A stretch of DNA of 64,000 bases, taken from positions 38,424-102,423 of the IMG/VR virus record IMGVR_UViG_3300032330_002177; one strand, written 5' to 3'. The DNA comes from a virus (taxonomy: Duplodnaviria > Caudoviricetes). The position numbers and the translations under genes are program-made. Below the pieces are notes generated by a model. The model was given only the letters and a program-made list of their open reading frames with translations. It had not been told where the DNA came from and made no database searches. Numbering within the stretch: the first letter of the stretch is position 1; each line of letters begins with the position of its first letter. Positions 12,993 through 63,173 of the stretch are shown one piece after another.

Positions 12993-13011
12993 ATATATAA
13001 AATAATAAGTT

Positions 13012-13155
13012 ATGAAATTAGTTATGATCGTGTTAATAGTATGCCTTACGGGATGCTCAAGTAGTAAAATTATATACCAGCGAGATATAGAAGGTAAAAT
13101 ATGGAAATCACATTCCGACGTATCAACAATAACAGGTTTAAAATATAAAAAATAA
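13012..13155 (+). CDS. 47 aa lipoprotein (not in ORF track)
   Basis: MKLVMIVLIVCLTGC lipobox. Confidence 0.65.
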   Translation: MKLVMIVLIVCLTGCSSSKIIYQRDIEGKIWKSHSDVSTITGLKYKK

Positions 13156-13158
13156 GTT

Positions 13159-13410
13159 ATGACAAAGTATCAAAAGTATTCATTAGGTTGGTTAGCAATC
13201 TACGTAGCGGTATTAGGTAATGTAATCTTAGCCGCATTATCAAGTTGTAATTACACATCACCAAGTCAAGACACTCAGATGTTACAATCAAAATATGAAA
13301 CCGTATATCAAATAAATCAATGGCAATATATTACATGTGATTCGATTCATGTATATCATATTAGAGTATCAGGAGATGGTCAAATTGAAACAACTATTAA
13401 AATTAAATAA
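13159..13410 (+). CDS. probable lipoprotein
   Basis: hydrophobic signal ending in LSSC. Confidence 0.6.
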   Translation: MTKYQKYSLGWLAIYVAVLGNVILAALSSCNYTSPSQDTQMLQSKYETVYQINQWQYITCDSIHVYHIRVSGDGQIETTIKIK

Positions 13411-13411
13411 T

Positions 13412-13669
13412 ATGAAATTTATAGAATTAACAAGAAGCTCTAGTCAGACATTAACAAAAGATAATTATAGTCCTGTCTTAATCAATCCAATGATGATAAC
13501 AGCATTAGTAGATTTAGGACCAGTCGATCAAGTATTTAATACACATGTGTATACAATGGGTGGTAGTCATGTAGTGAAGGAGACTATAGAACAAATACAG
13601 AAGTTAATACAAAAATCAGAAAACACAACCACTGTCACTTGGAAGACAAGTCCAACACCACATATATGA
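13412..13669 (+). CDS. FlbD-like small protein
   Basis: MKFIELTR...VLINPMMITAL...VVKETIEQIQKLI; ATG 13412. Confidence 0.55.
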   Translation: MKFIELTRSSSQTLTKDNYSPVLINPMMITALVDLGPVDQVFNTHVYTMGGSHVVKETIEQIQKLIQKSENTTTVTWKTSPTPHI

Positions 13670-13839
13670 GAGACCCAATAAATAGCGAAATAAGAACATA
13701 TTCGGATGACCCAAGTAGTATGAAAGGAGATCCACTAGAAGGTTTAAGTAAGTTTTTTGATTTTATGGCTATAGTATTTGGATTAGGAACACTAACAATA
13801 ATAATTGAAATAATAATTTGGATAATAAATAATATATGA
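13666..13839 (+). CDS. small membrane protein
   Basis: C-terminal TM segment. Confidence 0.55.
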   Translation: MRDPINSEIRTYSDDPSSMKGDPLEGLSKFFDFMAIVFGLGTLTIIIEIIIWIINNI

Positions 13840-14393
13840 TAATATTTAAAGGTAAAAAGAAAAATAAATATATTCACACCAGAGACATCACATTAGATGA
13901 TATTCGGGCTGTATTTTTTCCTAAAGATTTTCATGAGAAATATAGATACTTAGGTTCAGTACCACATTTTGAATCAGGTGATATATTCAAAGCAATGGAA
14001 CCATTAGTTATTTATATGGACTATAAAGCTAAACCTAAATGGTGTCCAAGATGGTTTCTTCGGTTTTTACACCTATTTGGAAACGATAATTCAATTGTTA
14101 GAGTTAGAAACCGAGCATTATATAACTTAAGTAATCAGTTGACTAAAGGCATTTTAATCGTTGATTATAAAACTAAATGGACCGAATATGATCTTCGTAT
14201 ATCCGTATATGGGGATGAAAGGATGAATGACTTAGCTGATTCTATTGAACATGAATTTTATAATAAAGGATATAGAGCTGATTTAGCTGAACAGATTAAG
14301 GAATTAGATCCTAATACAATGTATCATAGTGGTAATAGTATTAATTCATTAAAAGTAGAATTAGATAGATTAGAAACCAAAAACGATAAATAA
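13836..14393 (+). CDS. hypothetical protein
   Basis: 185 aa ORF. Confidence 0.75.
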   Translation: MIIFKGKKKNKYIHTRDITLDDIRAVFFPKDFHEKYRYLGSVPHFESGDIFKAMEPLVIYMDYKAKPKWCPRWFLRFLHLFGNDNSIVRVRNRALYNLSNQLTKGILIVDYKTKWTEYDLRISVYGDERMNDLADSIEHEFYNKGYRADLAEQIKELDPNTMYHSGNSINSLKVELDRLETKNDK

Positions 14394-48390: not shown

Positions 48391-48585
48391 ATGAACGCAC
48401 AAGAATTAATAAACACAAAAGAAATTTTAACTAATGAAGAACGTGAAATAGTATTAGCGTTTGACCCGGAATTAGATCGTAAATATTTAAATAAATTATA
48501 CGGTGATAGGGGTTGGTTGAATATTAATGTTTACTCTGAATATGAACATCATGAAAGAGTACACAGAATAGAATGTGGACTTTAA
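48391..48585 (+). CDS. hypothetical protein
   Basis: 64 aa ORF. Confidence 0.7.
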   Translation: MNAQELINTKEILTNEEREIVLAFDPELDRKYLNKLYGDRGWLNINVYSEYEHHERVHRIECGL

Positions 48586-48590
48586 TTGAT

Positions 48591-48616
48591 TGACCGCAAT
48601 TAATTTACTATCTTTA
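48591..48616 (+). promoter_or_regulatory. conserved early-type promoter
   Basis: TGACC-N13-TATCTTTA. Confidence 0.75.
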
Positions 48617-48639
48617 ATTATAATAAAAAAGCGAAAGTT

Positions 48640-48840
48640 ATGAATATAAGTTTAGTTAATGAAGCATTTGGTTTATTTATTGAAACACTTCCATTAGAAA
48701 ATATGGATAGTACTCATCTAAAATTTGAAGAATTATATGAAAAAGAGTGTAGAATATATACTTTATTTCGTCAAATGAATGAAGAAGAATTAGTTGAATA
48801 TCGTAGAAGATTAATGAAATTTAATGGTGACCGCGTTTAA
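48640..48840 (+). CDS. hypothetical protein
   Basis: 66 aa ORF. Confidence 0.7.
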   Translation: MNISLVNEAFGLFIETLPLENMDSTHLKFEELYEKECRIYTLFRQMNEEELVEYRRRLMKFNGDRV

Positions 48841-48853
48841 TTCACTAAATTTA
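48828..48853 (+). promoter_or_regulatory. conserved early-type promoter
   Basis: TGACC-N13-TAAATTTA. Confidence 0.75.
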
Positions 48854-48876
48854 TTATATAAATAAAAATAAAAGTT

Positions 48877-49047
48877 ATGAAAGAAAAAACACACACAAAA
48901 TTACAAGTAATGCAAGAATTAGCTGATATTATTATTGCAAAGAATAAAGCCAAATGGTCTAAAAGCTCTGACGACAGAATTGAAGCATTTGAAGCAGCTT
49001 ATAACGATGAAGCTAAATTGACTAAATTACTTACACCAAAAGCATAA
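48877..49047 (+). CDS. 56 aa protein (not in ORF track)
   Basis: AAAGTT-ATG context after promoter. Confidence 0.65.
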   Translation: MKEKTHTKLQVMQELADIIIAKNKAKWSKSSDDRIEAFEAAYNDEAKLTKLLTPKA

Positions 49048-49076
49048 TATACTAAAAATTATAAAAAATAAAAGTT

Positions 49077-49298
49077 ATGAATCCTTACATCGACATTGAC
49101 GGTAAAGACCGTTCACTAGAAGTTGAAAATGAATTTTCACCAACATTAGAAGATATTAAAAATGATCCTGAATTTTACGCTGAACTAGTTAATGATTTAA
49201 TGTTTCATTGGGTGTATGGAACACGTGAAACACCATTAATGAATAAAGCAAAAAAAATATTAATCGCTCATAATTTTAATTTTAAAATAAATCAATAA
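49077..49298 (+). CDS. hypothetical protein
   Basis: 73 aa ORF. Confidence 0.7.
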   Translation: MNPYIDIDGKDRSLEVENEFSPTLEDIKNDPEFYAELVNDLMFHWVYGTRETPLMNKAKKILIAHNFNFKINQ

Positions 49299-49303
49299 AG
49301 TCT

Positions 49304-49396
49304 ATGAAAGTACTAGATGATATAGGACCAGAATATGATTCAGCTGGATTCACAGAAGAAGATCGTGTTGTAGATGGACAATATATAAACATTTAA
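49304..49396 (+). CDS. 30 aa acidic microprotein (not in ORF track)
   Basis: MKVLDDIGPEYDSAGFTEEDRVVDGQYINI. Confidence 0.55.
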   Translation: MKVLDDIGPEYDSAGFTEEDRVVDGQYINI

Positions 49397-49408
49397 AATA
49401 AATAAGTT

Positions 49409-49564
49409 ATGAATATGAGTAAAGTCAAAGTAATGATTGAATCAGCATTCACAAAAAGAGATGCTATGAATATGTTAGAAACTTGGAAAATATTCAAAGG
49501 TTTATCAGAAGTTGATTATCAAAAAGGTAGAGAACTTATTAGAAAACAATTTGATAAAAAATAA
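49409..49564 (+). CDS. 51 aa protein (not in ORF track)
   Basis: AAGTT-ATG context. Confidence 0.6.
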   Translation: MNMSKVKVMIESAFTKRDAMNMLETWKIFKGLSEVDYQKGRELIRKQFDKK

Positions 49565-49569
49565 AAGTT

Positions 49570-49851
49570 ATGAGCACAAACAAAATTGATATGATTAAAT
49601 GTACGTTGAATAGTAGATGGATGACTGCTATTGAGAGAGCTTATATTATGATAATCTCACCTACTGGTAACTATGTAAGAATTGATAAAAAGAATATGGG
49701 CAAACTGACTGATCCTCAAAGGGAATTAATGTGGAAATGTGCTAACGCTTACAATAGCACATCCAATAATACAATCGAATTGACTAAGAGTGAAATGAGT
49801 GAGCTTATTACTATGGGTAATATAGCTGGTTATTTATATAAGAAAAAATAA
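49570..49851 (+). CDS. hypothetical protein
   Basis: 93 aa ORF. Confidence 0.7.
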   Translation: MSTNKIDMIKCTLNSRWMTAIERAYIMIISPTGNYVRIDKKNMGKLTDPQRELMWKCANAYNSTSNNTIELTKSEMSELITMGNIAGYLYKKK

Positions 49852-49865
49852 AAAATAAATAAGTT

Positions 49866-50351
49866 ATGAAAGTAATATCAATTCCCGACCCAATAATGGG
49901 TACTCGTAAGAAGTTTGTAGTAGAAGAAAATGAAAGTGAATTGCTAAATTTTCAACCAGGTATAGAAGTATTACCAGCAATGTATCATGAATCTGTTAAT
50001 TCAGGTAACTATTATTATGTTAAATTACATGAACCAGGTGAAAAATCTTGGAAAGATGGTGGACATGAATGTATAGATGAAAATGGATTTATGAGAGCGT
50101 TTCATTTAGATTCACTAATTGTACATCCAAAAACATTTAAGAAACAACCAAAACTTAAAGAAAAATCAAATAATTCAACTACAGGTAAACGTGGACGTCC
50201 AAAAATGGATCCAACTCTTAAAAAAACAGCAACAGTTTATGTTAAAACTGGTGGAAAAAAAGGCAGACCTAAAAAAGATCCATCAGAACTTAAATCAATT
50301 GTGTATGTTAAAACAGGTGGTAAACGTGGTCGCCCAAAGAAAAATAGTTAA
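49866..50351 (+). CDS. protein with three C-terminal AT-hook repeats
   Basis: GKRGRPK, GKKGRPK, GKRGRPK. Confidence 0.8.
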   Translation: MKVISIPDPIMGTRKKFVVEENESELLNFQPGIEVLPAMYHESVNSGNYYYVKLHEPGEKSWKDGGHECIDENGFMRAFHLDSLIVHPKTFKKQPKLKEKSNNSTTGKRGRPKMDPTLKKTATVYVKTGGKKGRPKKDPSELKSIVYVKTGGKRGRPKKNS

Positions 50352-50365: not shown

Positions 50366-51121
50366 ATGAAATTACTCGATATTTTAAAAGAAATTGCACA
50401 AAAACCAAAAGCTATATTTTTAGCTGGCCCAGCTGGCGCTGGAAAATCATTTATTGCTAAACAACTCCCACTATCTCAATTCCAAGTTATAAACATTGAT
50501 GATACTTACGAAGAATTGTTGAAAGCATCAGGAATAGGCATGAAACAGAAGGATTTTAATCCAGATCAATTGTCTCAATCCGCTAAATTAATGGCACAAG
50601 CGCAAAAAGCAACTAGAGAAAAATACGCTAACGCATTAGAGAATCTTAATGATATTATCATTGATGGAACTGGCGCTGCTTCACGTCCTTTATTGAAGAA
50701 AAAACAAGAATTAGAAGATTTAGGATATGAAACTTTAATGTTGATGATATGGGTCTCACCAATAACATCATTAGAACGTAACGCTAATAGAGATCGTTCT
50801 TTATTACCAAGTATTGTGTTAAGAACGTGGAGAGATATTAATCAAAACATAGAAACATACGAACAAGCATTTGGAGATAATTTTATTATAGTAAATAATG
50901 ATCCAAAAGACGCTGAGACTAATTTTGATGAAAAAGAAATAAAAACTAGATTTTTTGACACATCTTTAGCTAAAGGTAAACCAAAAACACCGGAAGAAAT
51001 AGCTAAATTAAAAGCAGATAAAGAAGAATTAAACAATACTATTAAATTATTAATTCAAAAACAACCTAAATTTACATCTATTGAAGATGCTAAATCAAAA
51101 ATACAAACATTCACTAAATGA
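50366..51121 (+). CDS. P-loop kinase (zeta-toxin/AAA_33-like) with leader peptide
   Basis: GPAGAGKS, IIIDGT, SLERNANRDR. Confidence 0.8.
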   Translation: MKLLDILKEIAQKPKAIFLAGPAGAGKSFIAKQLPLSQFQVINIDDTYEELLKASGIGMKQKDFNPDQLSQSAKLMAQAQKATREKYANALENLNDIIIDGTGAASRPLLKKKQELEDLGYETLMLMIWVSPITSLERNANRDRSLLPSIVLRTWRDINQNIETYEQAFGDNFIIVNNDPKDAETNFDEKEIKTRFFDTSLAKGKPKTPEEIAKLKADKEELNNTIKLLIQKQPKFTSIEDAKSKIQTFTK

Positions 51122-51468
51122 TCAAATTATTAGACATATTAACTGAAACTTTATCAAGTAAATATATCGGCAGCTGTGTTGATGTAGGAGGAAATAAAGC
51201 AGAAGTATGCCGTTACTTTCCTAACGCTTCAACAATGGCTACTTATGTAGGAAATCCAGATGAGAATGATTGGGGTATGAGTAAAGAACTAAATAAAGAT
51301 GAATTTTATAAATTTATAGATCCAAGTAAAGTTTCATCAAATGTAACAAAAGGTAAACATACATTTCATTATATAGATACTGGAGGATATGGACCTGAAG
51401 GAGCAGCTATATTTTTTATATATAATTGGGATCAAGATATACATTATTTTTTTAAAAGAGGAAAATGA
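51118..51468 (+). CDS. hypothetical protein with leader peptide
   Basis: MIKLLDILTE. Confidence 0.7.
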   Translation: MIKLLDILTETLSSKYIGSCVDVGGNKAEVCRYFPNASTMATYVGNPDENDWGMSKELNKDEFYKFIDPSKVSSNVTKGKHTFHYIDTGGYGPEGAAIFFIYNWDQDIHYFFKRGK

Positions 51469-53039
51469 TTGAATTAAAAACCATATTACAACAAATAAAC
51501 GAAGACGATCAACCAGATAAAAGTCCTAGTATATGTTATTATCCAGGAGGTTTTAAACCACCACATGAAGGACATTATGAAGTTGTAAAAGATTTAGCTT
51601 CACGTCCTGATGTTACTAAAGTAATAGTATTAATAGGACATAAGGAACGTGGTGGTATAACTAAAGAAATGAGTAAAAAGATTTGGGATTTATATCTTCA
51701 AATCCAACCAATGTCTCAAGTGACAGTTAGAATAGCTGAAAATCCATCACCAGTTAAAGATATTTTTTCAATAATGGATGACGATTTAGAATTAAGAGCT
51801 AGAGTCGCTGGTACTGACGGTGAAGAAGATATTCAAGGTTATTTTGATTCATTAACTAAAGCATTTGGTGACAGGATTATACCAGTAAAAGTTGAGCCAA
51901 AACTAATAACACAAGGAAAAAGAGCATCAGGTACACAAACACGTGAATATATTACTCAACTTAAAAAATCAATTCTTAAGTTACGCTCTATACAAGATAA
52001 AAACTCAACAGAATATTCTAAAGCTAGAAATGAATATTTAACTACATATAAAATAGTACAAGGATGTTTTCCTGATTTTGTAACTCAAAAAGGAAAATTT
52101 GATGAGGTACTTAATATACTAGGAATACCTGTATTGAATGAAGAAGATTTACAAGAAAATTTATTCACTATAAATTGGTGGAAACAAGTCTTAAAAGAAG
52201 AAGAAAATGAAGCAGATGTTATAGATGATTTTATTAAATTCACTACAGAAATTCTTGAATTACAAAAAATACCAAAAATAACTTTTGTAGATGATTCTGA
52301 AATAGCTAAAAGTATGCACTCATTAGGAGCCTATAATTCAGGTACTGATGAATTACTTATTGTTAAATCAAATAGATTAACAGCGGATATTTTACGTACA
52401 TTAGCTCATGAATTAGTTCATTTAAAACAAGATGAATTAGGAATGATAGAACCTGATTCTGGTGAAACAGGATCACCTATTGAAAATGAGGCGAATGCCG
52501 CGGCGGGTGTTTTATTAAGACAGTTTGGTAAATATCGTCCTGAAATATTTGAAAAATTAACAGAAGGAGAAGAAAAAAAACAATATAAAATATATTGTGA
52601 TATGGATGGTGTATTAGTTGATTTTGATAAAGCGTATTTTGACTTAACAGGTGAGAGAGCGAGTTTTAATACTGATCCTAAAAAATTCTGGGAACCAATA
52701 AACAAAGCAGGAGCTTCATTTTGGATTAAAATGAAATGGATGCCTGACGGAAAACAACTTTGGAATTATATTAAACCATACAATCCAGAATTATTATCAG
52801 CACCTTCATATCAAGAATCATCTAAAATAGGTAAATATATTTGGGTGAAACAAAACATACCAAGCACTAAACTTATATTACGCGCGGCAGATCGTAAACA
52901 GGAATTTGCAACACCAAACACTATATTAATTGATGATAGAGCGGATAATATTCAAAGATGGAATGATGCAGGTGGTATAGGAATACACCATACATCAGCT
53001 GAAAGTACAATAAAACAATTAAAAGATTTAGGATTGTGA
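51465..53039 (+). CDS. three-domain fusion: HIGH-type nucleotidyltransferase, zincin, HAD 5'(3')-nucleotidase
   Basis: PGGFKPPHEGH; LAHELVH...ENEANA; CDMDGVLVDF...LIDDR. Confidence 0.85.
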   Translation: MIELKTILQQINEDDQPDKSPSICYYPGGFKPPHEGHYEVVKDLASRPDVTKVIVLIGHKERGGITKEMSKKIWDLYLQIQPMSQVTVRIAENPSPVKDIFSIMDDDLELRARVAGTDGEEDIQGYFDSLTKAFGDRIIPVKVEPKLITQGKRASGTQTREYITQLKKSILKLRSIQDKNSTEYSKARNEYLTTYKIVQGCFPDFVTQKGKFDEVLNILGIPVLNEEDLQENLFTINWWKQVLKEEENEADVIDDFIKFTTEILELQKIPKITFVDDSEIAKSMHSLGAYNSGTDELLIVKSNRLTADILRTLAHELVHLKQDELGMIEPDSGETGSPIENEANAAAGVLLRQFGKYRPEIFEKLTEGEEKKQYKIYCDMDGVLVDFDKAYFDLTGERASFNTDPKKFWEPINKAGASFWIKMKWMPDGKQLWNYIKPYNPELLSAPSYQESSKIGKYIWVKQNIPSTKLILRAADRKQEFATPNTILIDDRADNIQRWNDAGGIGIHHTSAESTIKQLKDLGL

Positions 53040-53713
53040 TTAAATTAATAGACATATTATTAGAAATTAAAAAAATAACTACAGATCAATCTGTAATTTT
53101 TGGTGTTGAACATAATAATATGAATAATGTTAAGCAAGTTATAAATTATGTTATTAAAAATTTTTCACCTGAAGATAAAGTAGTATTTGTAGGAGAAGGA
53201 GGAGATGCTAATAATAATTATGTTCCTGGAAGTGAACAAGAAGCTATATATTTAAAATTACAAGATTATTTTAATAATATAGAAAATGATTCTTGGGATG
53301 GTGAAGATTTTGATGTAACTAATCCAAATGCTTATGTGTTTAAAATAGTTAAATCAATGACTGGCTTATCAAAAGATCAAACTCAAGCAGCTATATACGC
53401 CGCTATGGTAGGCCAAGACCAAGATCCAAATGAAGTTAAATCATTATTAACTCCAAAGGGAATACAATGGTTACAAAAATATAATATTCAAAACCCAGAA
53501 AATCCAAATCTACAAGATAAAACATTAATGTATAATTTATCTTTTCCTCAAGATACAGGTTCAGAAACTCAAGAAATTTCGCGAGCTATTGACGCTTACA
53601 ATAAAGCAAGAGATAAAAATTTAATTAAAAAAATAAAAGAATATGAAAGTAGAGGTTATAAAGTAATAGCATCTGCGGGTAAAGATCATATTGATTTAAT
53701 AAGTTCGTTATGA
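53036..53713 (+). CDS. possible TraB/ChaN/EreA-fold protein with leader peptide
   Basis: FGVEH...GEG...RD...AGKDH. Confidence 0.5.
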   Translation: MIKLIDILLEIKKITTDQSVIFGVEHNNMNNVKQVINYVIKNFSPEDKVVFVGEGGDANNNYVPGSEQEAIYLKLQDYFNNIENDSWDGEDFDVTNPNAYVFKIVKSMTGLSKDQTQAAIYAAMVGQDQDPNEVKSLLTPKGIQWLQKYNIQNPENPNLQDKTLMYNLSFPQDTGSETQEISRAIDAYNKARDKNLIKKIKEYESRGYKVIASAGKDHIDLISSL

Positions 53714-54285
53714 GTGAAAATAATTTAAAAAAAGAATTCTCTAAACGTGATGTTCAGAGAATGAGAAACATCATCACCGGTAATGCTGGAAATGCTACTG
53801 GTACTCAAATAGGATATTCAAAACAATCTCAAGATTATCAAGAAGGTGATACATGGGAGGAAAATGGTAAACAATGGACTATTAAAAATGGCATTAAACA
53901 AACTGTAACTAAATTTGATAAACTCAAAAAATTAGTTACATTCCCTTTAGTATGCCCAGAATGTTCTAAACCAATGAAATCAAATGATTTAAATAGAAAA
54001 ATGTATACTATCCATACAAAATGTTTTGATTGTGTGGTTGAAATGGAAGCTAAAATTAAAAGAGAAGGAAAGTGGGATGAGTATGAGAAAGGGATGTTGA
54101 ATAAAAATAAAAACGCTATGGTAGATGATTTTGAAGCATCTATTGAAGAATTTTATAAAATGCAATCCGAATCATATTTTACAGAAGCAGGTGATTTAGA
54201 ATCATGGAGTGGTGGTAAAATTAATGAGGAAGAGATAAAAAATGTTAAAGAATATATAAAGAAGTTGCGTGAACATGAACTATAA
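53710..54285 (+). CDS. zinc-ribbon-containing protein
   Basis: CPEC...CFDC. Confidence 0.7.
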   Translation: MSENNLKKEFSKRDVQRMRNIITGNAGNATGTQIGYSKQSQDYQEGDTWEENGKQWTIKNGIKQTVTKFDKLKKLVTFPLVCPECSKPMKSNDLNRKMYTIHTKCFDCVVEMEAKIKREGKWDEYEKGMLNKNKNAMVDDFEASIEEFYKMQSESYFTEAGDLESWSGGKINEEEIKNVKEYIKKLREHEL

Positions 54286-54323
54286 AATATTTATTATTAG
54301 TTATTTATAATAATTTTTCACAA

Positions 54324-54947
54324 ATGATAAGTTTATTTACGTTACAGCATATTATTTCTTTCGTATCAGGAGTTATAGTTCCTATTATTGTTGTTTTAAT
54401 TAATAAAAAAATAGAAGCTAAAAAATTAATAGCAACTGATAAATTAGCTCAAGAGTTACAAACATCTATTATTATAGATAATAAATTAGATTCATTAAAA
54501 ACTGAATTTAGTGCGGATAGAATATGGATAACACAATTTCATAATGGTGGTCATTATTATCCAACAGGTAAATCAATACAAAAATTTAGTATATTCTATG
54601 AAGTAGTTGAATACGGTGTTGATTCAATTAAAATGATGTTCCAAAATATCCCAGTTTCATTATTTTCACGCTCAACTAATCAACTTCTAGAAAAAGATTA
54701 TATAGCAATTCCAGATTTTAAAGATGAAACAGTAGCTACATATGGTTTAAAATATACCGCTGATGAAACTGGTTGTAAAAGTACTTACATATTTGGTATA
54801 TTTGATATTAATAATAGAATGATAGGTACATTAGGTGTTGAATATGTTAAGCGTAAAAAAACACTTGAATCTTCTGATATACAAATTCTCGAAATTGAAG
54901 CAGCTCAAATAGGTGGTGTACTTCATAATCACTTAATTAAAAATTAA
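54324..54947 (+). CDS. TM plus GAF-like protein, candidate T4 T-type holin
   Basis: one N-terminal TM; ADRIWITQFHNG...IGTLGVEY. Confidence 0.55.
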   Translation: MISLFTLQHIISFVSGVIVPIIVVLINKKIEAKKLIATDKLAQELQTSIIIDNKLDSLKTEFSADRIWITQFHNGGHYYPTGKSIQKFSIFYEVVEYGVDSIKMMFQNIPVSLFSRSTNQLLEKDYIAIPDFKDETVATYGLKYTADETGCKSTYIFGIFDINNRMIGTLGVEYVKRKKTLESSDIQILEIEAAQIGGVLHNHLIKN

Positions 54948-54996
54948 TTTATTTATTATTTTGTCAATATTTATGTAGGAAAAAAACTACATAATT

Positions 54997-55569
54997 ATGC
55001 CATACACTCGTAAAGGAAACTGTGTTTATAAAGAAACCGGTAAAAAAATGGGCTGTTCTAAAGATGCCTCTGCCGCGGAAAAATACATGAGTGCGTTATA
55101 CGCCGCTGAAAAAGGAAATATTAAAGAAGGATACGAACCAGAAACAATTGATCCAAACCAACCAGAACTAGCCATAACTGTTGATTTACCTAATCCAACA
55201 CAGTTAATGGCTAATTTTATTTCAACATTATTCTCATCACGTACACAAGCTCATATCTTCCATTTGCAAGTTAAAGGATTAGGTGCATTTGCAGCTCATA
55301 AAGCATTAAATGAATATTATGATGAAATTATAGGTTTAGCTGATGGTATTGCTGAATCATATCAAGGTCGTTATGATATTATCACAGGATATAAAGGTGA
55401 AGGACAATGGCTTGAAACTAATGGTGTGATTAAATATTTTGAAGCTCTTTGCATGTATGTTGAAAAAAACCGTGTTTCTCTAGTCCAAGATTCATATATT
55501 CAAAATCAAATAGATGAGGTAGTTGCTTTAATTGAGTCAACTAAATACAAATTAATAAATCTTCAGTAA
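54997..55569 (+). CDS. ferritin/Dps-like protein
   Basis: HIFHLQ...AHKALNEYYD...DGIAESYQG. Confidence 0.75.
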   Translation: MPYTRKGNCVYKETGKKMGCSKDASAAEKYMSALYAAEKGNIKEGYEPETIDPNQPELAITVDLPNPTQLMANFISTLFSSRTQAHIFHLQVKGLGAFAAHKALNEYYDEIIGLADGIAESYQGRYDIITGYKGEGQWLETNGVIKYFEALCMYVEKNRVSLVQDSYIQNQIDEVVALIESTKYKLINLQ

Positions 55570-55943
55570 TGAGAATTCGCATAAAAGAAGAAGAAGACTT
55601 TACACCAATAGAAAAACCAGATGCTCCTAAACCAGCATCTAAGCAATTTCAAATATTAGCATCAATGATCACTAATACTAAAGAAAATGATCAAACTAAT
55701 ATTCTATCTGCTATGCGTGCTTTACCAGGTGTAACAATTGTTAACTCACAAGCTTCCACTCCAGGAGCTAATACAGAAGGACAATTAAGATATCAAACAA
55801 ATGTAGATATTAAAATTGATACTCATGCTTTAGAAGGCGATGTTAAAGCCGCTATTAAAAAAATTATAGAAGATATTAAAAAAATACCTGGTGTAGTTGA
55901 ATTTAAAGTATCACCAAAAGCAACAGTAACAAAACCATATTAA
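55569..55943 (+). CDS. hypothetical protein, ferredoxin-like repeat
   Basis: RALPGV and KKIPGV. Confidence 0.65.
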   Translation: MRIRIKEEEDFTPIEKPDAPKPASKQFQILASMITNTKENDQTNILSAMRALPGVTIVNSQASTPGANTEGQLRYQTNVDIKIDTHALEGDVKAAIKKIIEDIKKIPGVVEFKVSPKATVTKPY

Positions 55944-55944
55944 T

Positions 55945-56310
55945 ATGAAATTAATAGATATTCTAACAGAAGCATTTGCTGCTAATTCAAAACTAGCAAA
56001 CGCTTTATTGTTTATGAAAAAAAACGCTGAACAAGTATATCAAGATGAACCAGAAATAATGTCAGCTATGAATGACGTGAAATCATCTGGATTATCATCA
56101 AAAGATGTATTTACTTTTGCTAGTTTATTTCCAAGAGATAGTTTCAAAGTAGATGATATTCGTAGTGGTAAATTAGAAGCTCAAATAAGTAGAATTTATT
56201 TTGGAGGAAGTGCAACAGAAGCTTTAAACAAAGCTAAAGCATTAAAAGCTTTTTTATTAGCATTTGATAATCATCATGGTGGAGATAAAAATTGGTATAA
56301 AGGATATTAA
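55945..56310 (+). CDS. hypothetical protein with leader peptide
   Basis: MKLIDILTE. Confidence 0.7.
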   Translation: MKLIDILTEAFAANSKLANALLFMKKNAEQVYQDEPEIMSAMNDVKSSGLSSKDVFTFASLFPRDSFKVDDIRSGKLEAQISRIYFGGSATEALNKAKALKAFLLAFDNHHGGDKNWYKGY

Positions 56311-56320
56311 AAAATAAAAT

Positions 56321-56971
56321 ATGAATCAAATCCAATTAAGAGAACATATTGAAAAAATCATTAACTATGTAGGCCAAGAATATAATCATGGTCCTAAATT
56401 AGTTATGAATGAATCTAAAAAACCTGTCTTCATTTCTGAAGGCATGTTTTATCATATCGAGAATAACTTACCACTTAACGAATCAATATATCGTCCTCAA
56501 TCAGCAATGTTTTTAAAATTATTTGTTGAAGCTAGAAACTTATATAATGATAAGCGTTTAGTATTATGTGAAGCGGATAAATACTATTTTGACAATACAG
56601 ACATAGGTACATTTGGTGAATATAATGGTATTACAGTACCTTTAGATTTACCTCTAACTGAGGAATTTTTAACAGAAGCATTAAATGAAGAAGATAAAAA
56701 ACAACCTGCTTTAGGTAAACCAAAGCGTGGTGGTTCTAAGAAGTTTTATGTGTATGTTAAGAAAGGAGATAAAGTAAAAAAAGTATCATTTGGTATGGCA
56801 GGTGGAGGATTAAGAGCAAAACTTAACAATCCAGAGGCAAGACGAGCATTTTCAAAAAGAATGAATTGTCCTAAAGCAACAGATAGAACAACAGCTCGTT
56901 ATTGGAGTTGCCGCTTACCTCGCTACGCTAAATTATTAGGATTTAAAACTACATTTTCAGGATACTGGTAA
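56321..56971 (+). CDS. two-part protein with basic C-terminal domain
   Basis: KPKRGGSKKFYVYVK...KVSFG...ARYWSC. Confidence 0.75.
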   Translation: MNQIQLREHIEKIINYVGQEYNHGPKLVMNESKKPVFISEGMFYHIENNLPLNESIYRPQSAMFLKLFVEARNLYNDKRLVLCEADKYYFDNTDIGTFGEYNGITVPLDLPLTEEFLTEALNEEDKKQPALGKPKRGGSKKFYVYVKKGDKVKKVSFGMAGGGLRAKLNNPEARRAFSKRMNCPKATDRTTARYWSCRLPRYAKLLGFKTTFSGYW

Positions 56972-56981
56972 AAAATAAACA

Positions 56982-57974
56982 ATGAAATTAATAGACATTC
57001 TAAAAGAATTAAATGAATTAAGCCTACAAAGAGGTCATGCTAGCCATACATCATCATCTGATTTAAGTATAGAAGGTATGATAACTTTCCTTTCAGCTAA
57101 AGGTATGGATAAATATGATTTTGAAGATGACATTAAAAAAAATACTTTAGTTGAACCTTTAATTAATGATCTTTTAGCTAAAACAACCCCAGTAGCTGAA
57201 AACGGACAATATAAATTACTTTTAAAAGTACAATCTGGTGAGAGTAAATTTTACTTAATTAATACTCAAGCACCAACAGTTGATATGGTGTTTGTTGGTA
57301 TCATGAAATTAGAAAAATACGATGAAGGATTTATGTATAATCCACAAACAGCATTTAATTTAAAAATGTTTCAAGTACATTGGTCTAATGTTGGTTTAGG
57401 ATATAGAGGAAAAGGATTAGGTAAAGTAATGTATACTTTAGTTTATCAATATCTGTCTAGCAAAGGATACGCTATGGCGAGTGACGGCATGTTATTTGAA
57501 GGAAGTTCAGGCATGTGGAGAACATATATGCCAGGTATAGCTAAATATTTTGGTGTTATAATGCGTGATATATTATTACCTGTAACTAAAGCTGATGTAG
57601 CTGATACTTCATTAGTTGAAAATGCTGATTTAGATGGATTTGTCGCTATGGAAAATCCACCAAAACTTATCCGTAAATTAGCTTATAATGTTGAAGGTTT
57701 ATCATTTGCTAGAGGTGAATATGGTGTTACAACTATATTTGGAACTGATGTAGAGGAAGAAGCACCAGAATTTTTTGATCAACCATTTATAGATGCTGTT
57801 GATGAAGGTGAATTTAATTCACTTAAAGATTTAGTTAAACAAGTTGGTAAATATCATACCATCAAAACAGCTACAGGTAATCCAAAAAATCTTAAATGTT
57901 TAATATTATCATTTTCAAATGCTATTATAGCCGCTAAACAAGTAGGAGATAGATTAGTACTTCAAGTAATATAA
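56982..57974 (+). CDS. GNAT-like acetyltransferase with leader peptide
   Basis: YRGKGLGKVMY...ASD...GMW. Confidence 0.65.
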   Translation: MKLIDILKELNELSLQRGHASHTSSSDLSIEGMITFLSAKGMDKYDFEDDIKKNTLVEPLINDLLAKTTPVAENGQYKLLLKVQSGESKFYLINTQAPTVDMVFVGIMKLEKYDEGFMYNPQTAFNLKMFQVHWSNVGLGYRGKGLGKVMYTLVYQYLSSKGYAMASDGMLFEGSSGMWRTYMPGIAKYFGVIMRDILLPVTKADVADTSLVENADLDGFVAMENPPKLIRKLAYNVEGLSFARGEYGVTTIFGTDVEEEAPEFFDQPFIDAVDEGEFNSLKDLVKQVGKYHTIKTATGNPKNLKCLILSFSNAIIAAKQVGDRLVLQVI

Positions 57975-57975
57975 T

Positions 57976-58794
57976 ATGAAAATTAGAATAATAAAAGAAG
58001 GCGATGAAAAAAAGATGTTTCCTGTAAGAGGTTACTATAGGCCTGAGTCTAGTTTTCACACTATAAAAGAATGGGAACATATAGCTAAAGAATTTTTAGA
58101 TTTAGAATCTCAAGGATATGATGTTAGAGGAGGAGAGATAAGTGATAATGATCAATTAACAAAATTAGTTAACAAATATTTTGGCTTTCAATTATATAAT
58201 GAAACTGAATTATTTCCTCAGTTAACTAAAAAAATGGTGTTAGATTTTATTGAAGATTTTGTAAATCATAGAGTTTGGTCTTTAAAGGATGAATATAAAA
58301 GATATATTGTCAATTTAGATAATGATAAAATAGCTTTTTTTTATTCAAGAGGAGCACTTGAACCTTATATATTACTAGATGATCAATTTACTATAGACAC
58401 TTATGATAGTACTGATATTCAAGTAACATCATATCATTATACAACAGAAGAAGGATATAAAAATATTGTAGATTCTATTGATCAAGGTATTCAAATACCT
58501 ATTTCAACATTTACTACACAATTTAAAGAATTTTTTAGACCTGAAAGTAATATATTACTAAAGCTAAAAGGTAATTTAGTAGCGGCATTCCAATCAGATG
58601 TTAAATCAATATCAACAGATAGAGGTCATAAAGCTGCTAACTTATATAGATTTTCATTCCCAGACCATGAAAACAATTTATGTAGAAATTGGGAAGAATG
58701 TCAACAAAATAAAACCTATCTTTGGAATGAAATAATAATGACACCAACAGAAATATTAGATAGGAAAAAAGTTAAAACTAATAATAAAATATGA
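57976..58794 (+). CDS. possible ADP-ribosyltransferase-fold protein
   Basis: YHYT...ISTFT...WNEII pattern, weak. Confidence 0.4.
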   Translation: MKIRIIKEGDEKKMFPVRGYYRPESSFHTIKEWEHIAKEFLDLESQGYDVRGGEISDNDQLTKLVNKYFGFQLYNETELFPQLTKKMVLDFIEDFVNHRVWSLKDEYKRYIVNLDNDKIAFFYSRGALEPYILLDDQFTIDTYDSTDIQVTSYHYTTEEGYKNIVDSIDQGIQIPISTFTTQFKEFFRPESNILLKLKGNLVAAFQSDVKSISTDRGHKAANLYRFSFPDHENNLCRNWEECQQNKTYLWNEIIMTPTEILDRKKVKTNNKI

Positions 58795-59054
58795 GTCATC
58801 CTTACACTGACTTAGTTGTGACAGATGAATATATAATTCGTGAATTTGACGAAAATATTGATCCAATAGAATTAATGTGGCATCGAGATGATGAGAATAG
58901 ATTAGTTGAAGCAATAGAACCTACAGATTGGAAAATACAACTTGATAACGAGTTGCCATTAAGTATGGATAAGCCAATATTTATACCACGTCATATGTGG
59001 CATAGAGCTATAAAAGGAACAAATAAACTAAAATTGAAAATATACAAATCATGA
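58791..59054 (+). CDS. cupin-like protein
   Basis: WHRD...WKIQLD...IFIP...WHR. Confidence 0.7.
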   Translation: MSHPYTDLVVTDEYIIREFDENIDPIELMWHRDDENRLVEAIEPTDWKIQLDNELPLSMDKPIFIPRHMWHRAIKGTNKLKLKIYKS

Positions 59055-59494
59055 AAAAATCAGCTTTAAAGCAATTAATTAAAGAAGCTATTGAAGAAGT
59101 AAAACCAAAAGTTGAAGAAGAAGTACTTAACGAAGGATTTGCTCCTGAAACAGACGAAATTGGTTCTTTTTTTATTACAGAAATGCCAACATTAAGTTCA
59201 ACTATAGACGATATAGTATTTGAATGTAAAGATATTGCTTATTTTGCTAATCAAGTTAAAGGTGGTTTATCACCAAATGATGTGGCTGGTGTATTTAAAA
59301 CTGAAGCTAAAGCTAAAAAATTAGGTGAAAAATTACTTGCTGAACGTGATAAGAAAAAAACTGAAGCTAAAAAAGCAGGTGAAGCTTATAAAAAAATGAA
59401 AGAAGAAGCATTAGCTAAAGTACAAGAGTACATGAAAACTAAAGGTAAAACTAAGCAAGTAGTTGATGAGTTAACTGATGTAACCAAATCATAA
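59051..59494 (+). CDS. hypothetical protein with leader peptide
   Basis: MKKSALKQLIKE. Confidence 0.7.
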   Translation: MKKSALKQLIKEAIEEVKPKVEEEVLNEGFAPETDEIGSFFITEMPTLSSTIDDIVFECKDIAYFANQVKGGLSPNDVAGVFKTEAKAKKLGEKLLAERDKKKTEAKKAGEAYKKMKEEALAKVQEYMKTKGKTKQVVDELTDVTKS

Positions 59495-59784
59495 TGAAAC
59501 GTTCAGAATTAAGAAAAATAATTAAAGAAGCTTACATTGACTTATCTAAAGTTCATGTAGGGGACACTCAAAAAACTCCTGGCGTAACAACTAGAGTATC
59601 AGATATAGATCCTGAAACAGGAAAATTATCTTGGGATGTATCTTATGAAGCAGATCCAGAACAAGTATATAAACATTTAGTTGATTTATCAGATCTATTA
59701 AAAGACGCACCTAAAAATTCAGAAATGGGTAAAATAGGAGATATAGTTAAAAAACTTAAAAATCAAGTACATCGTTTAATATAA
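59494..59784 (+). CDS. hypothetical protein with leader peptide
   Basis: MKRSELRKIIKE. Confidence 0.7.
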   Translation: MKRSELRKIIKEAYIDLSKVHVGDTQKTPGVTTRVSDIDPETGKLSWDVSYEADPEQVYKHLVDLSDLLKDAPKNSEMGKIGDIVKKLKNQVHRLI

Positions 59785-59810
59785 AAATAAGAATTAAATT
59801 ATTTAAGATA

Positions 59811-60320
59811 ATGCAAGACAATTTCAACATACATGAATGGCGACTTAATCAGGTTATTCAAGAAACCGAAAAAATAAAAGGTAAAGACGGTAAAGGATGT
59901 TGGAAAGGATACCGATATAGTGGTACGGAAAATGGTAAAGACAAATGTATTCCTGTAAAAGAAGAAAAACAACTTTGTAATGAATGTGGAGCGGGATATA
60001 TGGAAGAAGGACAGTGTATGGAATGTGGTTACATGGAGGAAGAAGCTACATTCACAGACAAATATGATGATAATCCTAAATTAACAGGTGGACAAAAAGA
60101 ATTACCTGATGAAGTGCAAGCAGGAATTTTAAAGAAAGAAGGTATGGATCATGAAGTATCAATGGCTCAAAATAGCCTACAATCTATCATCAGTTCAGCA
60201 TCTCAACTAATAAATAAAATAGGAAATAACGAGAAGGATTTACCAGGATGGATTCAAGACCATATAACAAACGCTGAAAACTATATTGATCAAGCAAACC
60301 AAGGATACCACGAACTATAA
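59811..60320 (+). CDS. multi-segment hypothetical protein
   Basis: CWKGY...C, CNECG/CMECG, DLPGWIQDHIT modules. Confidence 0.7.
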   Translation: MQDNFNIHEWRLNQVIQETEKIKGKDGKGCWKGYRYSGTENGKDKCIPVKEEKQLCNECGAGYMEEGQCMECGYMEEEATFTDKYDDNPKLTGGQKELPDEVQAGILKKEGMDHEVSMAQNSLQSIISSASQLINKIGNNEKDLPGWIQDHITNAENYIDQANQGYHEL

Positions 60321-62047
60321 TGAAAAAAATCAAAATTATAAAATCAAGACCACTCAAAGAAGAAGAGGAAGTAATAGACCAACAACCACAAGATGTTGTT
60401 CCTGAACAACCTACTATTACCTTTGAGTCTAATCCTTTAGAATTTATACTTCAAAAATATCCAACGTTAAATAAAACATTAGTTGAATTATTAACTGAGG
60501 ATTTTAGAGATTATATTACTGGTGTTTATATAATGGCACCAAAACCAACTATATTTAAAGTAGTTTTGCATAATAATCGTAATTTCCATTTAATATTCAT
60601 GGGTGATAGTAATTATGAAGCTAAAGTAAGTGGTAAAAAATATTGGTTATCTAATGTAGGTGAACTACAAAATGCTACAATGTCTATAGCTGAATTATTA
60701 ATGCTAGGAACACCTCCATCAACTGAAGGCCCAGCAGAAGAATTACCACCAGCTGAAGGAACAGAAGGACCATCAGAAACACCTGAAGAAACATCTGAAG
60801 AAACACCATCTGAAAAAGAAGGAGGAGAAGAAGAAGGTGAATTACCTGAATTGAAAGAATCAATTCAACGATTTAAATCAATTCAACGATTTAAACGTAA
60901 ATTAACAGAAAGTTTATTATTAGAAGCGCCAAAACGAGAATACGAGATATTAACTCCCGATGCTAAAGAAGTAGCTCAAGTTTTAATTAAAAAATTAGGT
61001 ATAACTCAAGATCAAATAAAACCTAAATCATCAAATGGTATTGTTATATATGATGATAATAGAAAAAATTTAATTAGTACACTTGAAAAATTAGGAATAT
61101 ACGGTAAACCAAAAGATGAAAATTCAGGTGATTTTAAAGTAGATAATAAAATTAGTATTAATTTTAAACCATTAAAAACAAGTGGTGAATACTATGAATT
61201 AAAACCTCAATCTTTAGGTATAACAACAGATCAATTTATTTCCATAAATCAAACTAAAAAGGAATTAATAAATGGTTTAAAAAATCATAAAGCATTAAGT
61301 GACGAGCAAAAAGAATTCGCTATAGGTCTTGTAAATGGTAGAAATACATTATCACCTGAAGAAACTAAAGATATATTAGACGATACTGGATTCATAAATG
61401 AAGTATTGAAAAATTTAGGAGAAATTGTAGGAGCAATAGAATACGCTAAAAAAGTTAATGGTAATGCTTTATATTTTTTTCTCAAACCTAATGAACCTTT
61501 AGTTGATTATAAAGTAAAAACTAACGATAGAATAATAGATGTCAGTGCAAAAACTTCTAAAGGTAAAGGTAATTTAATTAAATTAGGAGATGTTTATGAA
61601 AAAATAAAAAATGCTAAACTAAAATTAGATCCAAAATATAAAGAATTTTTTGAAACAACTACAACTAAAAATCCTAGAATTTCTATTGGAGTAATGAATT
61701 TAATTAGTAAGTATGGAAGTCCTAATGTTAAAGAACTTTATAGAAAATTTCTAAAAGCAAATCCTGGTTATTTAGATAAAAGTCGTGCTGATGGTAGTAA
61801 ATATGGATATGATTCACAAACTAGAACTTTTATAGAAAGACAATTTATTAAAGATCTTAATAAAGAATTTGATTTTAATAAGTTATTTCGAAAAGCTATA
61901 GATATTCCATATGTTAAATATGATTTTGATAGAAATACCTTAAAACCAACTGTAAAAGTAATTCAAGGTGAAGATTTTAATGTCTATTTAGGTACTAAAA
62001 ACAGTAAAGGACATGATGGTGAGGGAATTGGTTTTCAATTAGCTTAA
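60320..62047 (+). CDS. two-part protein with C-terminal PD-(D/E)XK-like domain
   Basis: acidic linker; GEIVG...EPLVDY...VSAK. Confidence 0.55.
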   Translation: MKKIKIIKSRPLKEEEEVIDQQPQDVVPEQPTITFESNPLEFILQKYPTLNKTLVELLTEDFRDYITGVYIMAPKPTIFKVVLHNNRNFHLIFMGDSNYEAKVSGKKYWLSNVGELQNATMSIAELLMLGTPPSTEGPAEELPPAEGTEGPSETPEETSEETPSEKEGGEEEGELPELKESIQRFKSIQRFKRKLTESLLLEAPKREYEILTPDAKEVAQVLIKKLGITQDQIKPKSSNGIVIYDDNRKNLISTLEKLGIYGKPKDENSGDFKVDNKISINFKPLKTSGEYYELKPQSLGITTDQFISINQTKKELINGLKNHKALSDEQKEFAIGLVNGRNTLSPEETKDILDDTGFINEVLKNLGEIVGAIEYAKKVNGNALYFFLKPNEPLVDYKVKTNDRIIDVSAKTSKGKGNLIKLGDVYEKIKNAKLKLDPKYKEFFETTTTKNPRISIGVMNLISKYGSPNVKELYRKFLKANPGYLDKSRADGSKYGYDSQTRTFIERQFIKDLNKEFDFNKLFRKAIDIPYVKYDFDRNTLKPTVKVIQGEDFNVYLGTKNSKGHDGEGIGFQLA

Positions 62048-62071
62048 ATATTTATAATCATAATAAAAAAA

Positions 62072-62563
62072 ATGAAAAGACAAATTAACGAAATTAAAAA
62101 GATGCAGCTTTTAGCTGGTTTAATCACTGAAAGTGAATATCAAGAAGAAATAATGAAGAGTGAGGAAACAGTAGATGAAGTATACGGATTTGAAAATGAT
62201 GATCTTATCTATGATAATATGGTGACTATGGATAAGGAACAACTAATTTCAGATATGTTAAGAACAGCTGAAAAAGATCCATCAACAACTTTAAAAGATT
62301 ACTTGTTAAAATATGATTCTTCAATAGATGATGATGATGATTTTGATAGTGAAGAAGAAATAATAAATGAAGCTGAAATATCAAATAGTGAAATTTATGA
62401 GTATGTATCAAAAAATTATAAACCTTTTATCGCTCCAGGAGTTCAAAAAATGCTAGAAGGATTAGATAAGAAGTTTAATGATCTTGATCCAAAACAACAA
62501 AAATTAGTATTTGAAAATGTATCAAAAATAATGAAGTACCAAATGGAAGTTTGGAATAACTAA
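62072..62563 (+). CDS. acidic protein with leader peptide
   Basis: INEIKKMQLLAGLITE. Confidence 0.7.
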   Translation: MKRQINEIKKMQLLAGLITESEYQEEIMKSEETVDEVYGFENDDLIYDNMVTMDKEQLISDMLRTAEKDPSTTLKDYLLKYDSSIDDDDDFDSEEEIINEAEISNSEIYEYVSKNYKPFIAPGVQKMLEGLDKKFNDLDPKQQKLVFENVSKIMKYQMEVWNN

Positions 62564-62616
62564 AAACTAGAACAGATTCATTGCCTGTTCGATTAAATAT
62601 AAATAATTAGGAGTAG

Positions 62617-62646
62617 TGGCCCACCCAAAAGGTGGGCCATCTGTTT
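62617..62646 (+). terminator. intrinsic terminator
   Basis: TGGCCCACC...GGTGGGCCA then TCTGTTT. Confidence 0.7.
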
Positions 62647-62681
62647 GCCTGCGCAAGATTAAGATGCTATATTTAATTATT

Positions 62682-63173
62682 ATGAATATATTTTACATAG
62701 ACTCTGATCCAAAAGTAGCCGCGCGTCAATTAGTAGATGACCACATTCGTAAAATGCAAATCGAAAGTGCTCAAATGTTATGTACAACATTTCATCATTA
62801 TGGCATAGACGCTCCATATAAAAAAGCTCATTATAATCATCCATCAACTAAATGGGTTCGTGAATCAATTAATCATGTTAAATGGTTATTAGAACATGGT
62901 TTAGAAATATGTGATGAATTTGTTGTTAGGTATGGTAAAGAACATGCTACAAGAAAAGTTTTGCTTTGGGTAAAAGATAACTTATCTTTATTAGAAGATA
63001 AAATACCATCTACTGAATTTAAAGATCCACCACAATGTATGGATAATATTTATAAAAGTAATAATACATTAGAATCATATCGTAAATTTTATATAGAAGA
63101 AAAAATTAAAATTAAAAAACTAAATTATAATAAACTAAATAACACACCAGAATGGATAAAAAAATTGTTATAG
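62682..63173 (+). CDS. pyrimidine-dimer DNA glycosylase-like (DenV/Pyr_excise)
   Basis: MNIFY...DDHIRKM.IESAQML...HYNHPSTKWVRES; start ATG 62682 after TTTG-N20-TATATTTA. Confidence 0.75.
   Translation: MNIFYIDSDPKVAARQLVDDHIRKMQIESAQMLCTTFHHYGIDAPYKKAHYNHPSTKWVRESINHVKWLLEHGLEICDEFVVRYGKEHATRKVLLWVKDNLSLLEDKIPSTEFKDPPQCMDNIYKSNNTLESYRKFYIEEKIKIKKLNYNKLNNTPEWIKKLL

Follow-up and report, generated by a model that had tools for sequence, protein, structure and literature searches.

A cluster of genes between positions 50366 and 62563 of a 64-kb window of DNA from an uncultured freshwater tailed virus (Duplodnaviria; Caudoviricetes) encodes proteins that are unrelated to each other and share short N-terminal leaders of a few types. 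The leaders are tags under selection at the protein level. They are portable and interchangeable, they conform to the cleavage pattern of the gp21 head protease of phage T4, and the lineage that carries them is of the T4 type. It is likely that the cluster proteins carry T4-style capsid-targeting leaders, by means of which they would be loaded into a T4-type head and trimmed there. This prediction of capsid targeting and processing is well supported by sequence comparison; the binding, cleavage, packaging and injection of the tagged proteins are steps that we infer. A first-pass annotation of the same DNA, made from the sequence alone, had read the leaders as capsid-targeting sequences (CTSs) of packaged enzymes. 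The comparative evidence speaks strongly for T4-like capsid-targeting propeptides with the gp21 motif, and the enzyme labels are borne out only in part.

The window is the last 64 kb (positions 38,424 to 102,423) of the linear IMG/VR virus record IMGVR_UViG_3300032330_002177, which is 102,423 bp long and 63% complete by CheckV. The window has approximately 29% G+C, with practically all of its genes on the plus strand. By head protease, the nearest cultured relatives are Flavobacterium phage vB_FspM_immuto (160 kb; below, immuto) and Microcystis phage Mel-JY01. Genes are named below by their start position in the window.

Leader peptides of the cluster

All leaders quoted in the first-pass annotation are present at the start codons to which it had assigned them. 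The most frequent type, class 1, comprises MKLLDILKE (50366), MIKLLDILTE (51118), MIKLIDILLE (53036, with a GTG start), MKLIDILTE (55945) and MKLIDILKE (56982). Class 2 comprises MRIRIKE (55569) and MKIRIIKE (57976). The other leaders are MKKIKIIKSRPLKE (60320), MKKSALKQLIKE (59051), MKRSELRKIIKE (59494) and ..INEIKKMQLLAGLITE (62072). At least four to five classes can be distinguished, MIKLIDILKE, MKIRIKE, MKKSxLKQLIKE, ..IKKMQLLAGLITE and M(A/Q)DNFN..., and in all of them the leader is 7-20 residues long, amphipathic and ends in (L/I)-x-Glu.

A sixth copy of class 1, MIKLISILKE, lies outside the window at position 17796 of the genome. A search of the six-frame translation of the entire 102,423-bp contig for K[LI][LI][DS]IL.E gave six matches, every one of them at residue 2-3 of an open reading frame (ORF). 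The codons of these leaders differ synonymously (TTA/CTA, ATA/ATT/ATC, GAT/GAC) and the DNA upstream of them is unrelated. Therefore the conserved unit is the peptide and not an RNA or DNA element. From residue 23 to the end, the six class-1 proteins have no similarity to each other (the best blastp E-value within the family is 0.26), and yet none of the 15 pairs of their leaders ranks below 22nd among 13,861 N-terminal pairs.

The first-pass annotation had suggested a search with a leader profile. A position-specific scoring matrix built from the six class-1 copies produced 34 matches of at least 10 bits in 110,555 positions (635 ORFs, from this genome and from relatives), and 26 of these matches are N-terminal, with approximately 0.8 expected. 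The more general pattern, [LI]-x-E ending at residue 7-21, is present in 15 of the 18 genes of block 50366-62100, compared to 31 of 149 genes elsewhere (Fisher p = 2.5e-7).

Genes of the cluster

The leader-bearing genes of the cluster are as follows.

50366..51121, + strand: P-loop kinase (zeta-toxin/AAA_33-like), 251 aa, with class-1 leader MKLLDILKE; PF06414 4.5e-10, PF13671 2.4e-8
51118..51468, + strand: 116-aa protein with class-1 leader MIKLLDILTE; no Pfam or PHROG match
51465..53039, + strand: 524-aa protein with leader-like MIELKTILQQINE, followed by HxGH nucleotidyltransferase-like, HExxH metallopeptidase-like and 5'-3' deoxyribonucleotidase regions
53036..53713, + strand: 225-aa protein with class-1 leader MIKLIDILLE (GTG start)
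55569..55943, + strand: 124-aa protein with class-2 leader MRIRIKE, kept in the orthologue from related contig G004
55945..56310, + strand: 121-aa protein with class-1 leader MKLIDILTE
56321..56971, + strand: 216-aa protein with weak leader-like MNQIQLRE; L-R-E ends at residue 8 and meets the generic [LI]xE criterion only
56982..57974, + strand: 330-aa GNAT-like protein with class-1 leader MKLIDILKE
57976..58794, + strand: 272-aa protein with class-2 leader MKIRIIKE(GDEKK) and a probable ADP-ribosyltransferase-like C-terminal fold
59051..59494, + strand: 147-aa acidic/basic helical protein with class-3 leader MKKSALKQLIKE; leader pair score 30 with 59494
59494..59784, + strand: 96-aa protein with class-3 leader MKRSELRKIIKE
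59811..60320, + strand: 169-aa Cys-rich protein with class-5 leader MQDNFNIHEW..VIQE
60320..62047, + strand: 575-aa protein with leader MKKIKIIKSRPLKE, a carrier domain of about 100 aa, an acidic Pro/Glu linker ending in ELKE, and a C-terminal region with nucleotidyltransferase-like/PD-(D/E)xK-like fold matches
62072..62563, + strand: 163-aa acidic protein with class-4 leader MKRQINEIKKMQLLAGLITE

The enzyme labels proposed in the first-pass annotation fared differently. The kinase label of 50366 is confirmed by the Pfam match to Zeta_toxin/AAA_33. The 51465 protein had been labelled a nucleotidyltransferase/nucleotidase. The nucleotidase part stands, as residues 371-523 match phrog_2643 (5'-3' deoxyribonucleotidase, 3.9e-28), but the nucleotidyltransferase match (CTP_transf_like, E 0.0055) is below the threshold, as is that to Peptidase_M78 (E 0.0076). 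The immuto genes syntenic to 51465 are annotated as NMNAT-like and NT5C. The GNAT label of 56982 comes from the naming by JGI and the motif RGKGLGK only; there is no Pfam or PDB match, and a PDB sequence search with the profile of the 56982 family found nothing. The ADP-ribosyltransferase (ART) and nuclease labels (57976 and 60320) are considered below.

No cluster protein has a PHROG or Pfam match to internal head proteins or Alt, and among 50,697 phage records tblastn found no match to the 56982 or the 57976 protein. The middle of the cluster also contains a gene for a DUF5856 protein (54997-55569; PF19174, 1.8e-16). It has no short leader, and an IKE tripeptide is located at approximately residue 44, before the domain.

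Portability and exchange of leaders

IMG/VR was scanned for exact back-translated K-L-I-D-I-L-K-E, which yielded at least 117 stretches; 80 of these were analysed. Among the 80, the peptide is located at the start of an ORF in 47 cases and within three codons of the start in four more. These ORF starts head at least 32 unrelated protein clusters. Most matches that are not N-terminal come from a single large protein conserved in an unrelated group of phages (..VKVQTFLG-KLIDILKELWENILVPIISW..), mostly from sample 3300045988; loci with the internal peptide are L028, L029, L042, L049, L060, L077, L090 and others. A gp21-type protease was found in 7 of 31 tag-bearing records, which are fragmentary; these 7 include 6 of the 10 records of at least 40 kb, though the latter are 27-63% complete.

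Leaders are also exchanged within families. Of the kinase, the 120 best homologues were compared: the majority, 76-79% identical, start with MKIRIKE-[AVI]QQTP, and the closest with MKL[VL]DILKE-IAQ. Thus two leader classes have been exchanged on one enzyme. In the 57976 family, where 369 homologues were detected, most proteins are 255-256 aa long, start with MY.VRGY and have no leader. The lineage considered here adds MKIRIIKEGDEKK, and two family members add MIKLRDILVE.. (class 1) instead. In the GNAT-like family, pairwise identity among 22 homologues is 0.64 in the leader and 0.45 in the remainder of the protein, and the leader is retained in homologues down to 32% identity.

Similarity to substrates of the T4 head protease

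The gp21 protease of T4 cleaves after L/I-x-E, and the CTSs of internal proteins are 10-19 residues long and sufficient alone for encapsidation (PMC9026906; PMC5694885). The internal proteins of T-even phages are diverse, and the CTS is the only part common to them (PMC3012670). The N-termini of gp21 substrates, as read from the T4 record, are MAKINELLRE (gp24), MELITELFDE (Alt), MNEPQLLIE (gp21 itself) and MLKEQLIAE (gp22). MIKLIDILKE has the same length (10) as the N-termini of gp24 and Alt, and is similar to them in the hydrophobic and acidic positions and in the L-x-E end.

Related contigs were reached through homologues of the 56982 protein. The closest relative, G004, has an orthologue of this protein with 65% identity and the same gene order. 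Its head module follows the cluster, approximately 4 kb beyond the point where the contig considered here stops. The order of genes in this module is T4-type TerL, Portal_T4 (2.7e-67), four ORFs of unknown function, Peptidase_S77 (4.8e-27; also E 1e-28), two more ORFs, one of them encoding an acidic coiled-coil scaffold-like protein, and Gp23. The same order is seen in G001, where both Peptidase_S77 (E 2e-26) and Gp23 are present, and in cultured immuto, with the syntenic cluster just upstream.

In an alignment of the relatives' proteases with T4 gp21, His85 and Ser140 are invariant, and the sites of T4 gp21 itself, N-terminal LLIE and C-terminal (I/L)TE, are kept. The gp23 propeptide KW.K..LLEG..ENQ.K is conserved as well, and V/I-x-E immediately precedes the mature domain. 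The relatives' major capsid proteins start with MSQVQSLIE|S, MANLVQSLLNE|S and MELNQLFE|G (the bar stands after the Glu), and their proteases with MSKQVLIE and MDKDLLIE.

Three leader classes recur on ORFs within or flanking the head modules of relatives. In G004, an ORF with MKYTIDEIKKMQLIAGLINE directly precedes the protease, an ORF with MKIRIKE directly follows it, and an ORF with MADNFNMKQFLMENKL is located between the portal and the protease. The class M(A/Q/E)DNF[ND], represented here by 59811, occurs at several sites: in G004 between the portal and the protease and also upstream of TerL, and in immuto both upstream of TerL (gp076/077) and after the protease (gp069). Other leaders of immuto are MRLLELLRE (gp082), MKKSQLRQIIKE (gp080), comparable to the class-3 leader of 59051, and ..RRMQKLAGIITE (gp083).

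The class-4 leader (..MQLLAGLI..) probably copies the C-terminal docking tail of the scaffold protein. In 96,996 residues there are nine matches to the pattern [KRQ][MLW][QK][QKL][LI]AG[IL], and no match is internal. Five of them are located at residues 10-12 from the N-terminus (class 4, including 62072), and four are within two residues of the C-terminus, namely those of the scaffolds of G004, G001 and immuto and of the ORF that follows the protease in G004.

The last-mentioned ORF (G004 L018:1781-2599, minus strand), directly after the gp21-like protease, encodes a protein of 262-273 aa with class-2 leader MKIRIKE and a ParB/sulfiredoxin-like DGHHRW motif. The C-terminus of this protein, ..IARLKKLAGIQ before the stop codon, is a copy of the scaffold tail. 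With two address signals, the protein is a candidate for a ParB-like nuclease packaged in the head. Another conserved gene of the relatives encodes an extremely basic protein of 40-45 aa ending in Y(R/V)GQG(R/K) (G004 L018:3982-4110, minus strand; G001 88316-88438; immuto gp085). It is located between the portal and the protease in G004 and G001, and within the leader-gene cluster in immuto. The protein may be a DNA-condensing internal peptide.

The 57976 protein and the 60320 family

The C-terminal part of the 57976 protein probably has an ADP-ribosyltransferase-like fold. Its AlphaFold2 model has a predicted local distance difference test score (pLDDT) of 84, with residues 1-19, that is, the leader, as the sole disordered N-terminal part. 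The structural matches have modest scores: CteC (Z 5.6, root-mean-square deviation 3.6, 120 residues aligned), Scabin (4.8) and DarT (4.0), with PARP rows at Foldseek E 0.016-0.2. ARTs weakly dominate the match lists of two aligners, and the ESM feature leads score 0.88-0.89. In the family alignment His154, Ser177 and Glu252 are invariant. Thus the ART-like fold suggested in the first-pass annotation remains probable, with weak structural scores. If the protein is an ART, it would parallel Alt of T4.

The N-terminal domain of 60320 was found by an exhaustive phmmer search in 438 representatives, fused to many different C-termini. The pattern [LI]xE at residue 7-21 is present in 92 of 112 members, compared to 13 of 82 in an internal control window, and the members use several leader classes. 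The linker between the domains ends in [LIVF]xE in 84 of 101 members, typically EE(L/I)xE with (S/T/G/A)K after it, irrespective of the domain that comes next. No Pfam domain, and in particular no MuF domain (Phage_Mu_F), was found on 60320 or ten family members, the profile of the N-domain has no PDB relative, and among phage records the N-domain matched immuto phages only. A relationship to T4 gp68 was considered and rejected (probability 0.1 in the profile comparison).

The C-terminal region of 60320, for which the first-pass annotation had proposed a nuclease, is similar to I-Ssp6803I (Z 6.0) and MspI (Z 5.0 over 178 residues), and Foldseek gives MspI/HinP1I a probability of approximately 0.3. 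As these nucleotidyltransferase-like and PD-(D/E)xK-like matches are middling, the nuclease label stays a lead. A domain of the 60320 type also occurs near the C-terminus of immuto gp079 (841 aa; NC_055915 114006-116531, L022:9317-11842). Since the domain is N-terminal in 60320, this module can occupy either end of a protein.

Genomic context

The window contains baseplate-wedge genes and two tRNAs. Directly upstream of the first leader gene there is a 161-aa protein with three AT-hook-like GKRGRPKK repeats at its end (49866-50351). On the other side of the cluster, 62616-63173 encodes a pyrimidine-dimer DNA glycosylase similar to DenV (PF03013, E 4.1e-5); the motif TATAAATA is located 18 nt upstream of the gene. 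The FAD-binding-type ORF that follows runs off the end of the contig.

GroES- and GroEL-like genes are located upstream of the window, at genome positions 12396-14367. In T4 the folding of gp23 requires GroEL plus the phage's own gp31. The phage considered here may supply the whole chaperonin.

At 48391-50351 and many other starts, the gene is preceded by an A-rich stretch, ..ATAAAAAATAAAAGTT-ATG, without a Shine-Dalgarno box. The host is likely to belong to Bacteroidota, because of the similarity to immuto and these A-rich gene starts lacking the Shine-Dalgarno box. A scan for sigma-70 promoters and terminators was uninformative in this AT-rich DNA (89 found, 97 expected).

Interpretation and alternative explanations

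One alternative is that the tagged proteins are accessories of the prohead core or scaffold, which are targeted and cut, and then degraded and expelled before DNA packaging rather than injected. T4 gp22, gp67 and gp68 are core proteins with such a fate. Several members of the cluster are small, acidic and of low complexity, similar to T4 gp67 (59051, 62072 and the linker of 60320), ORFs within the relatives' head modules have leaders of the same classes, and there are many internal [LI]xE sites. However, many members are globular enzymes, unlike scaffolds (the kinase, the nucleotidase, the well-modelled ART-like protein). Besides, the set of tagged proteins, with its 32 or more clusters, is highly variable between relatives, as would be the case for accessory cargo and not for assembly machinery. 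Thus we consider this explanation unlikely.

It is quite improbable that the shared N-termini serve some other process, such as recognition by a modifying enzyme or chaperone, sorting to a membrane or compartment, or initiation of translation on the mRNA. AT-rich, Lys-rich starts (MKK..) are indeed common in the genome, and the phage encodes its own chaperonin. On the other hand, a tag for a radical-SAM enzyme is not supported: no radical-SAM gene was found in the contig considered here, G004 or G001, and the single one of immuto is approximately 80 kb from the cluster. An mRNA element is not consistent with the lack of conservation in the codons and the upstream DNA. Moreover, every class ends in the gp21 motif, resembles the N-termini of T4 substrates and recurs on head-module ORFs and the capsid protein, and the tag co-occurs with gp21-type proteases.

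Finally, the leaders are very unlikely to be an artefact of mis-called starts, compositional bias or a recent functionless duplication of a 5' gene segment: an internal Met of 57976 does align with the start of leaderless homologues, and some database homologues are called without a leader, but the leader is better conserved than the rest of the protein, it is kept in distant homologues, in other contigs it is present on unrelated protein clusters, the start-to-stop packing of the genes means that leader codons are not spare intergenic DNA, and the internal control window of the 60320 family is poor in the motif.

Several points weigh against the preferred explanation, targeting to the capsid. 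The contig itself contains no Peptidase_S77 protease, scaffold or capsid genes, and no real Gp23 match. The gp21 and gp23 genes are missing because the contig is a fragment that ends approximately 1.4 kb after the cluster, and therefore the link to the head module rests on relatives. The specificity of the protease in this lineage is assumed from its conservation. Packaging, cleavage and injection of the tagged proteins and their homologues are what we infer from sequence, and a literature search for a virion proteome of immuto or Mel-JY01 found none. The nucleotidase, the NMNAT-like protein and the kinase are ordinary cytoplasmic enzymes of nucleotide metabolism with no obvious need for packaging. 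The T4 late-promoter motif TATAAATA was not found in front of the leader cluster; it precedes 48877, 62616 and many small early-looking genes. The weaker leaders (56321, 58791 and 51465) are individually unconvincing, as [LI]xE is common in an AT-rich proteome and approximately 19% of N-termini are expected to have it by chance.

Under the capsid-targeting explanation, the mechanism might be as follows. During head assembly the leader would bind the scaffolding core or the inner shell of a T4-type prohead, so that the protein is built into the core. A serine protease of the gp21 type would then cut after the Glu, take off the leader and free the mature protein within the head. The globular enzymes, that is, the kinase, the nucleotidyltransferase-peptidase-nucleotidase chain and the GNAT-, ART- and nuclease-like proteins, would remain with the DNA and enter the host on infection. 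Alt and the internal proteins IPI-III of T4 behave in this way. Those members that are small and acidic may serve instead as disposable proteins of the core. The class-4 leader would probably act by copying the C-terminal tail of the scaffold, and in the 60320 family the exchangeable C-terminal domains would be preceded by a conserved domain that acts as a carrier and by an acidic linker that can be cleaved.

A more general scheme can be offered only tentatively. In it, this lineage of aquatic T4-type phages of about 160 kb would run a plug-and-play system of capsid loading, with several interchangeable address peptides, including the copy of the scaffold tail, and with a carrier domain from which polymorphic effectors are set free when the head protease cuts the acidic linker. 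The ART-like protein, the zeta-like kinase, the metallopeptidase and the nuclease-like protein would be injected before the DNA and constitute a fast-evolving arsenal for host takeover or anti-defence.

To our knowledge, the T4 CTS has been studied almost solely in T-even coliphages, in which it serves to load a few small proteins. No paper describing CTS-type cargo for aquatic T4-type phages was found in a literature search. The data presented here suggest that the CTS principle of T4 operates in a distant, largely uncultured lineage and is expanded there to multiple leader classes, enzyme cargo, a mimic of the scaffold tail and a carrier-linker-effector family. If this is true, T4-type phages inject proteins on a much broader and more modular scale than would be supposed from T4 itself, and dozens of unrelated enzymes could be addressed by exchange of a peptide of 7-20 residues. 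This would provide a simple sequence rule for prediction of injected proteins, that is, candidate anti-defence effectors, in environmental phage genomes, and the leaders would be new tags by which foreign proteins could be loaded into capsids. Mechanisms of docking are suggested by the mimic of the scaffold tail and by the carrier-linker-effector family, and they are directly testable in the cultured relative immuto.

Comparison with known systems

The closest analogy is with IPI, IPII, IPIII and Alt of T4, in which unrelated proteins also have an N-terminal propeptide of 7-20 residues ending in L/I-x-Glu. The gp21-type S77 protease, gp22-like scaffold and gp23 capsid have counterparts in the relatives, and one of the candidate cargo proteins (57976) is probably ART-like, as is Alt. 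However, the mature proteins are not homologous to the T4 internal proteins, so the resemblance is in mechanism and not in descent. T4 has one leader class, whereas here there are several interchangeable ones. The set is much larger, approximately 15 genes clustered just upstream of the head module, and the candidate cargo is mainly enzymes rather than the small basic proteins of T4. The host is probably from Bacteroidota, and the system is one predicted from genes.

In the giant phages phiKZ and SPN3US, multiple head-internal proteins (ejection and inner-body proteins) have N-terminal propeptides that are cut after Glu by a gp21-related protease, and paralogues share N-termini (PMC5694885). 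These propeptides are mostly longer than 100 residues and have a different cleavage motif, whereas the leaders considered here are of T4 length.

The MuF-type polymorphic toxins of temperate phages consist of a conserved head-associated N-domain and a variable C-terminal toxin. The 60320 family is similar to them in its architecture, in which the N-terminal module is conserved and a linker joins it to C-terminal domains that can be exchanged. On the other hand, its linker ends in a protease-type E(L/I)xE, the whole protein has a CTS-like leader, and there is no MuF domain.

Short terminal docking peptides are also known as the coat-binding C-termini of scaffolds, for instance that of P22, and as the cargo-loading peptides of encapsulins. 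By analogy, a short terminal peptide common to the scaffold and the cargo could dock inside a shell of the HK97 fold. Unlike these systems, in the phages considered here the scaffold tail, ..[MW]Q[QK][LI]AGI(I)K at the stop codon, is copied at the N-terminus of other proteins (class 4) and followed by a cleavage site; binding of this copy to the shell would be the counterpart of docking in P22 and encapsulins.

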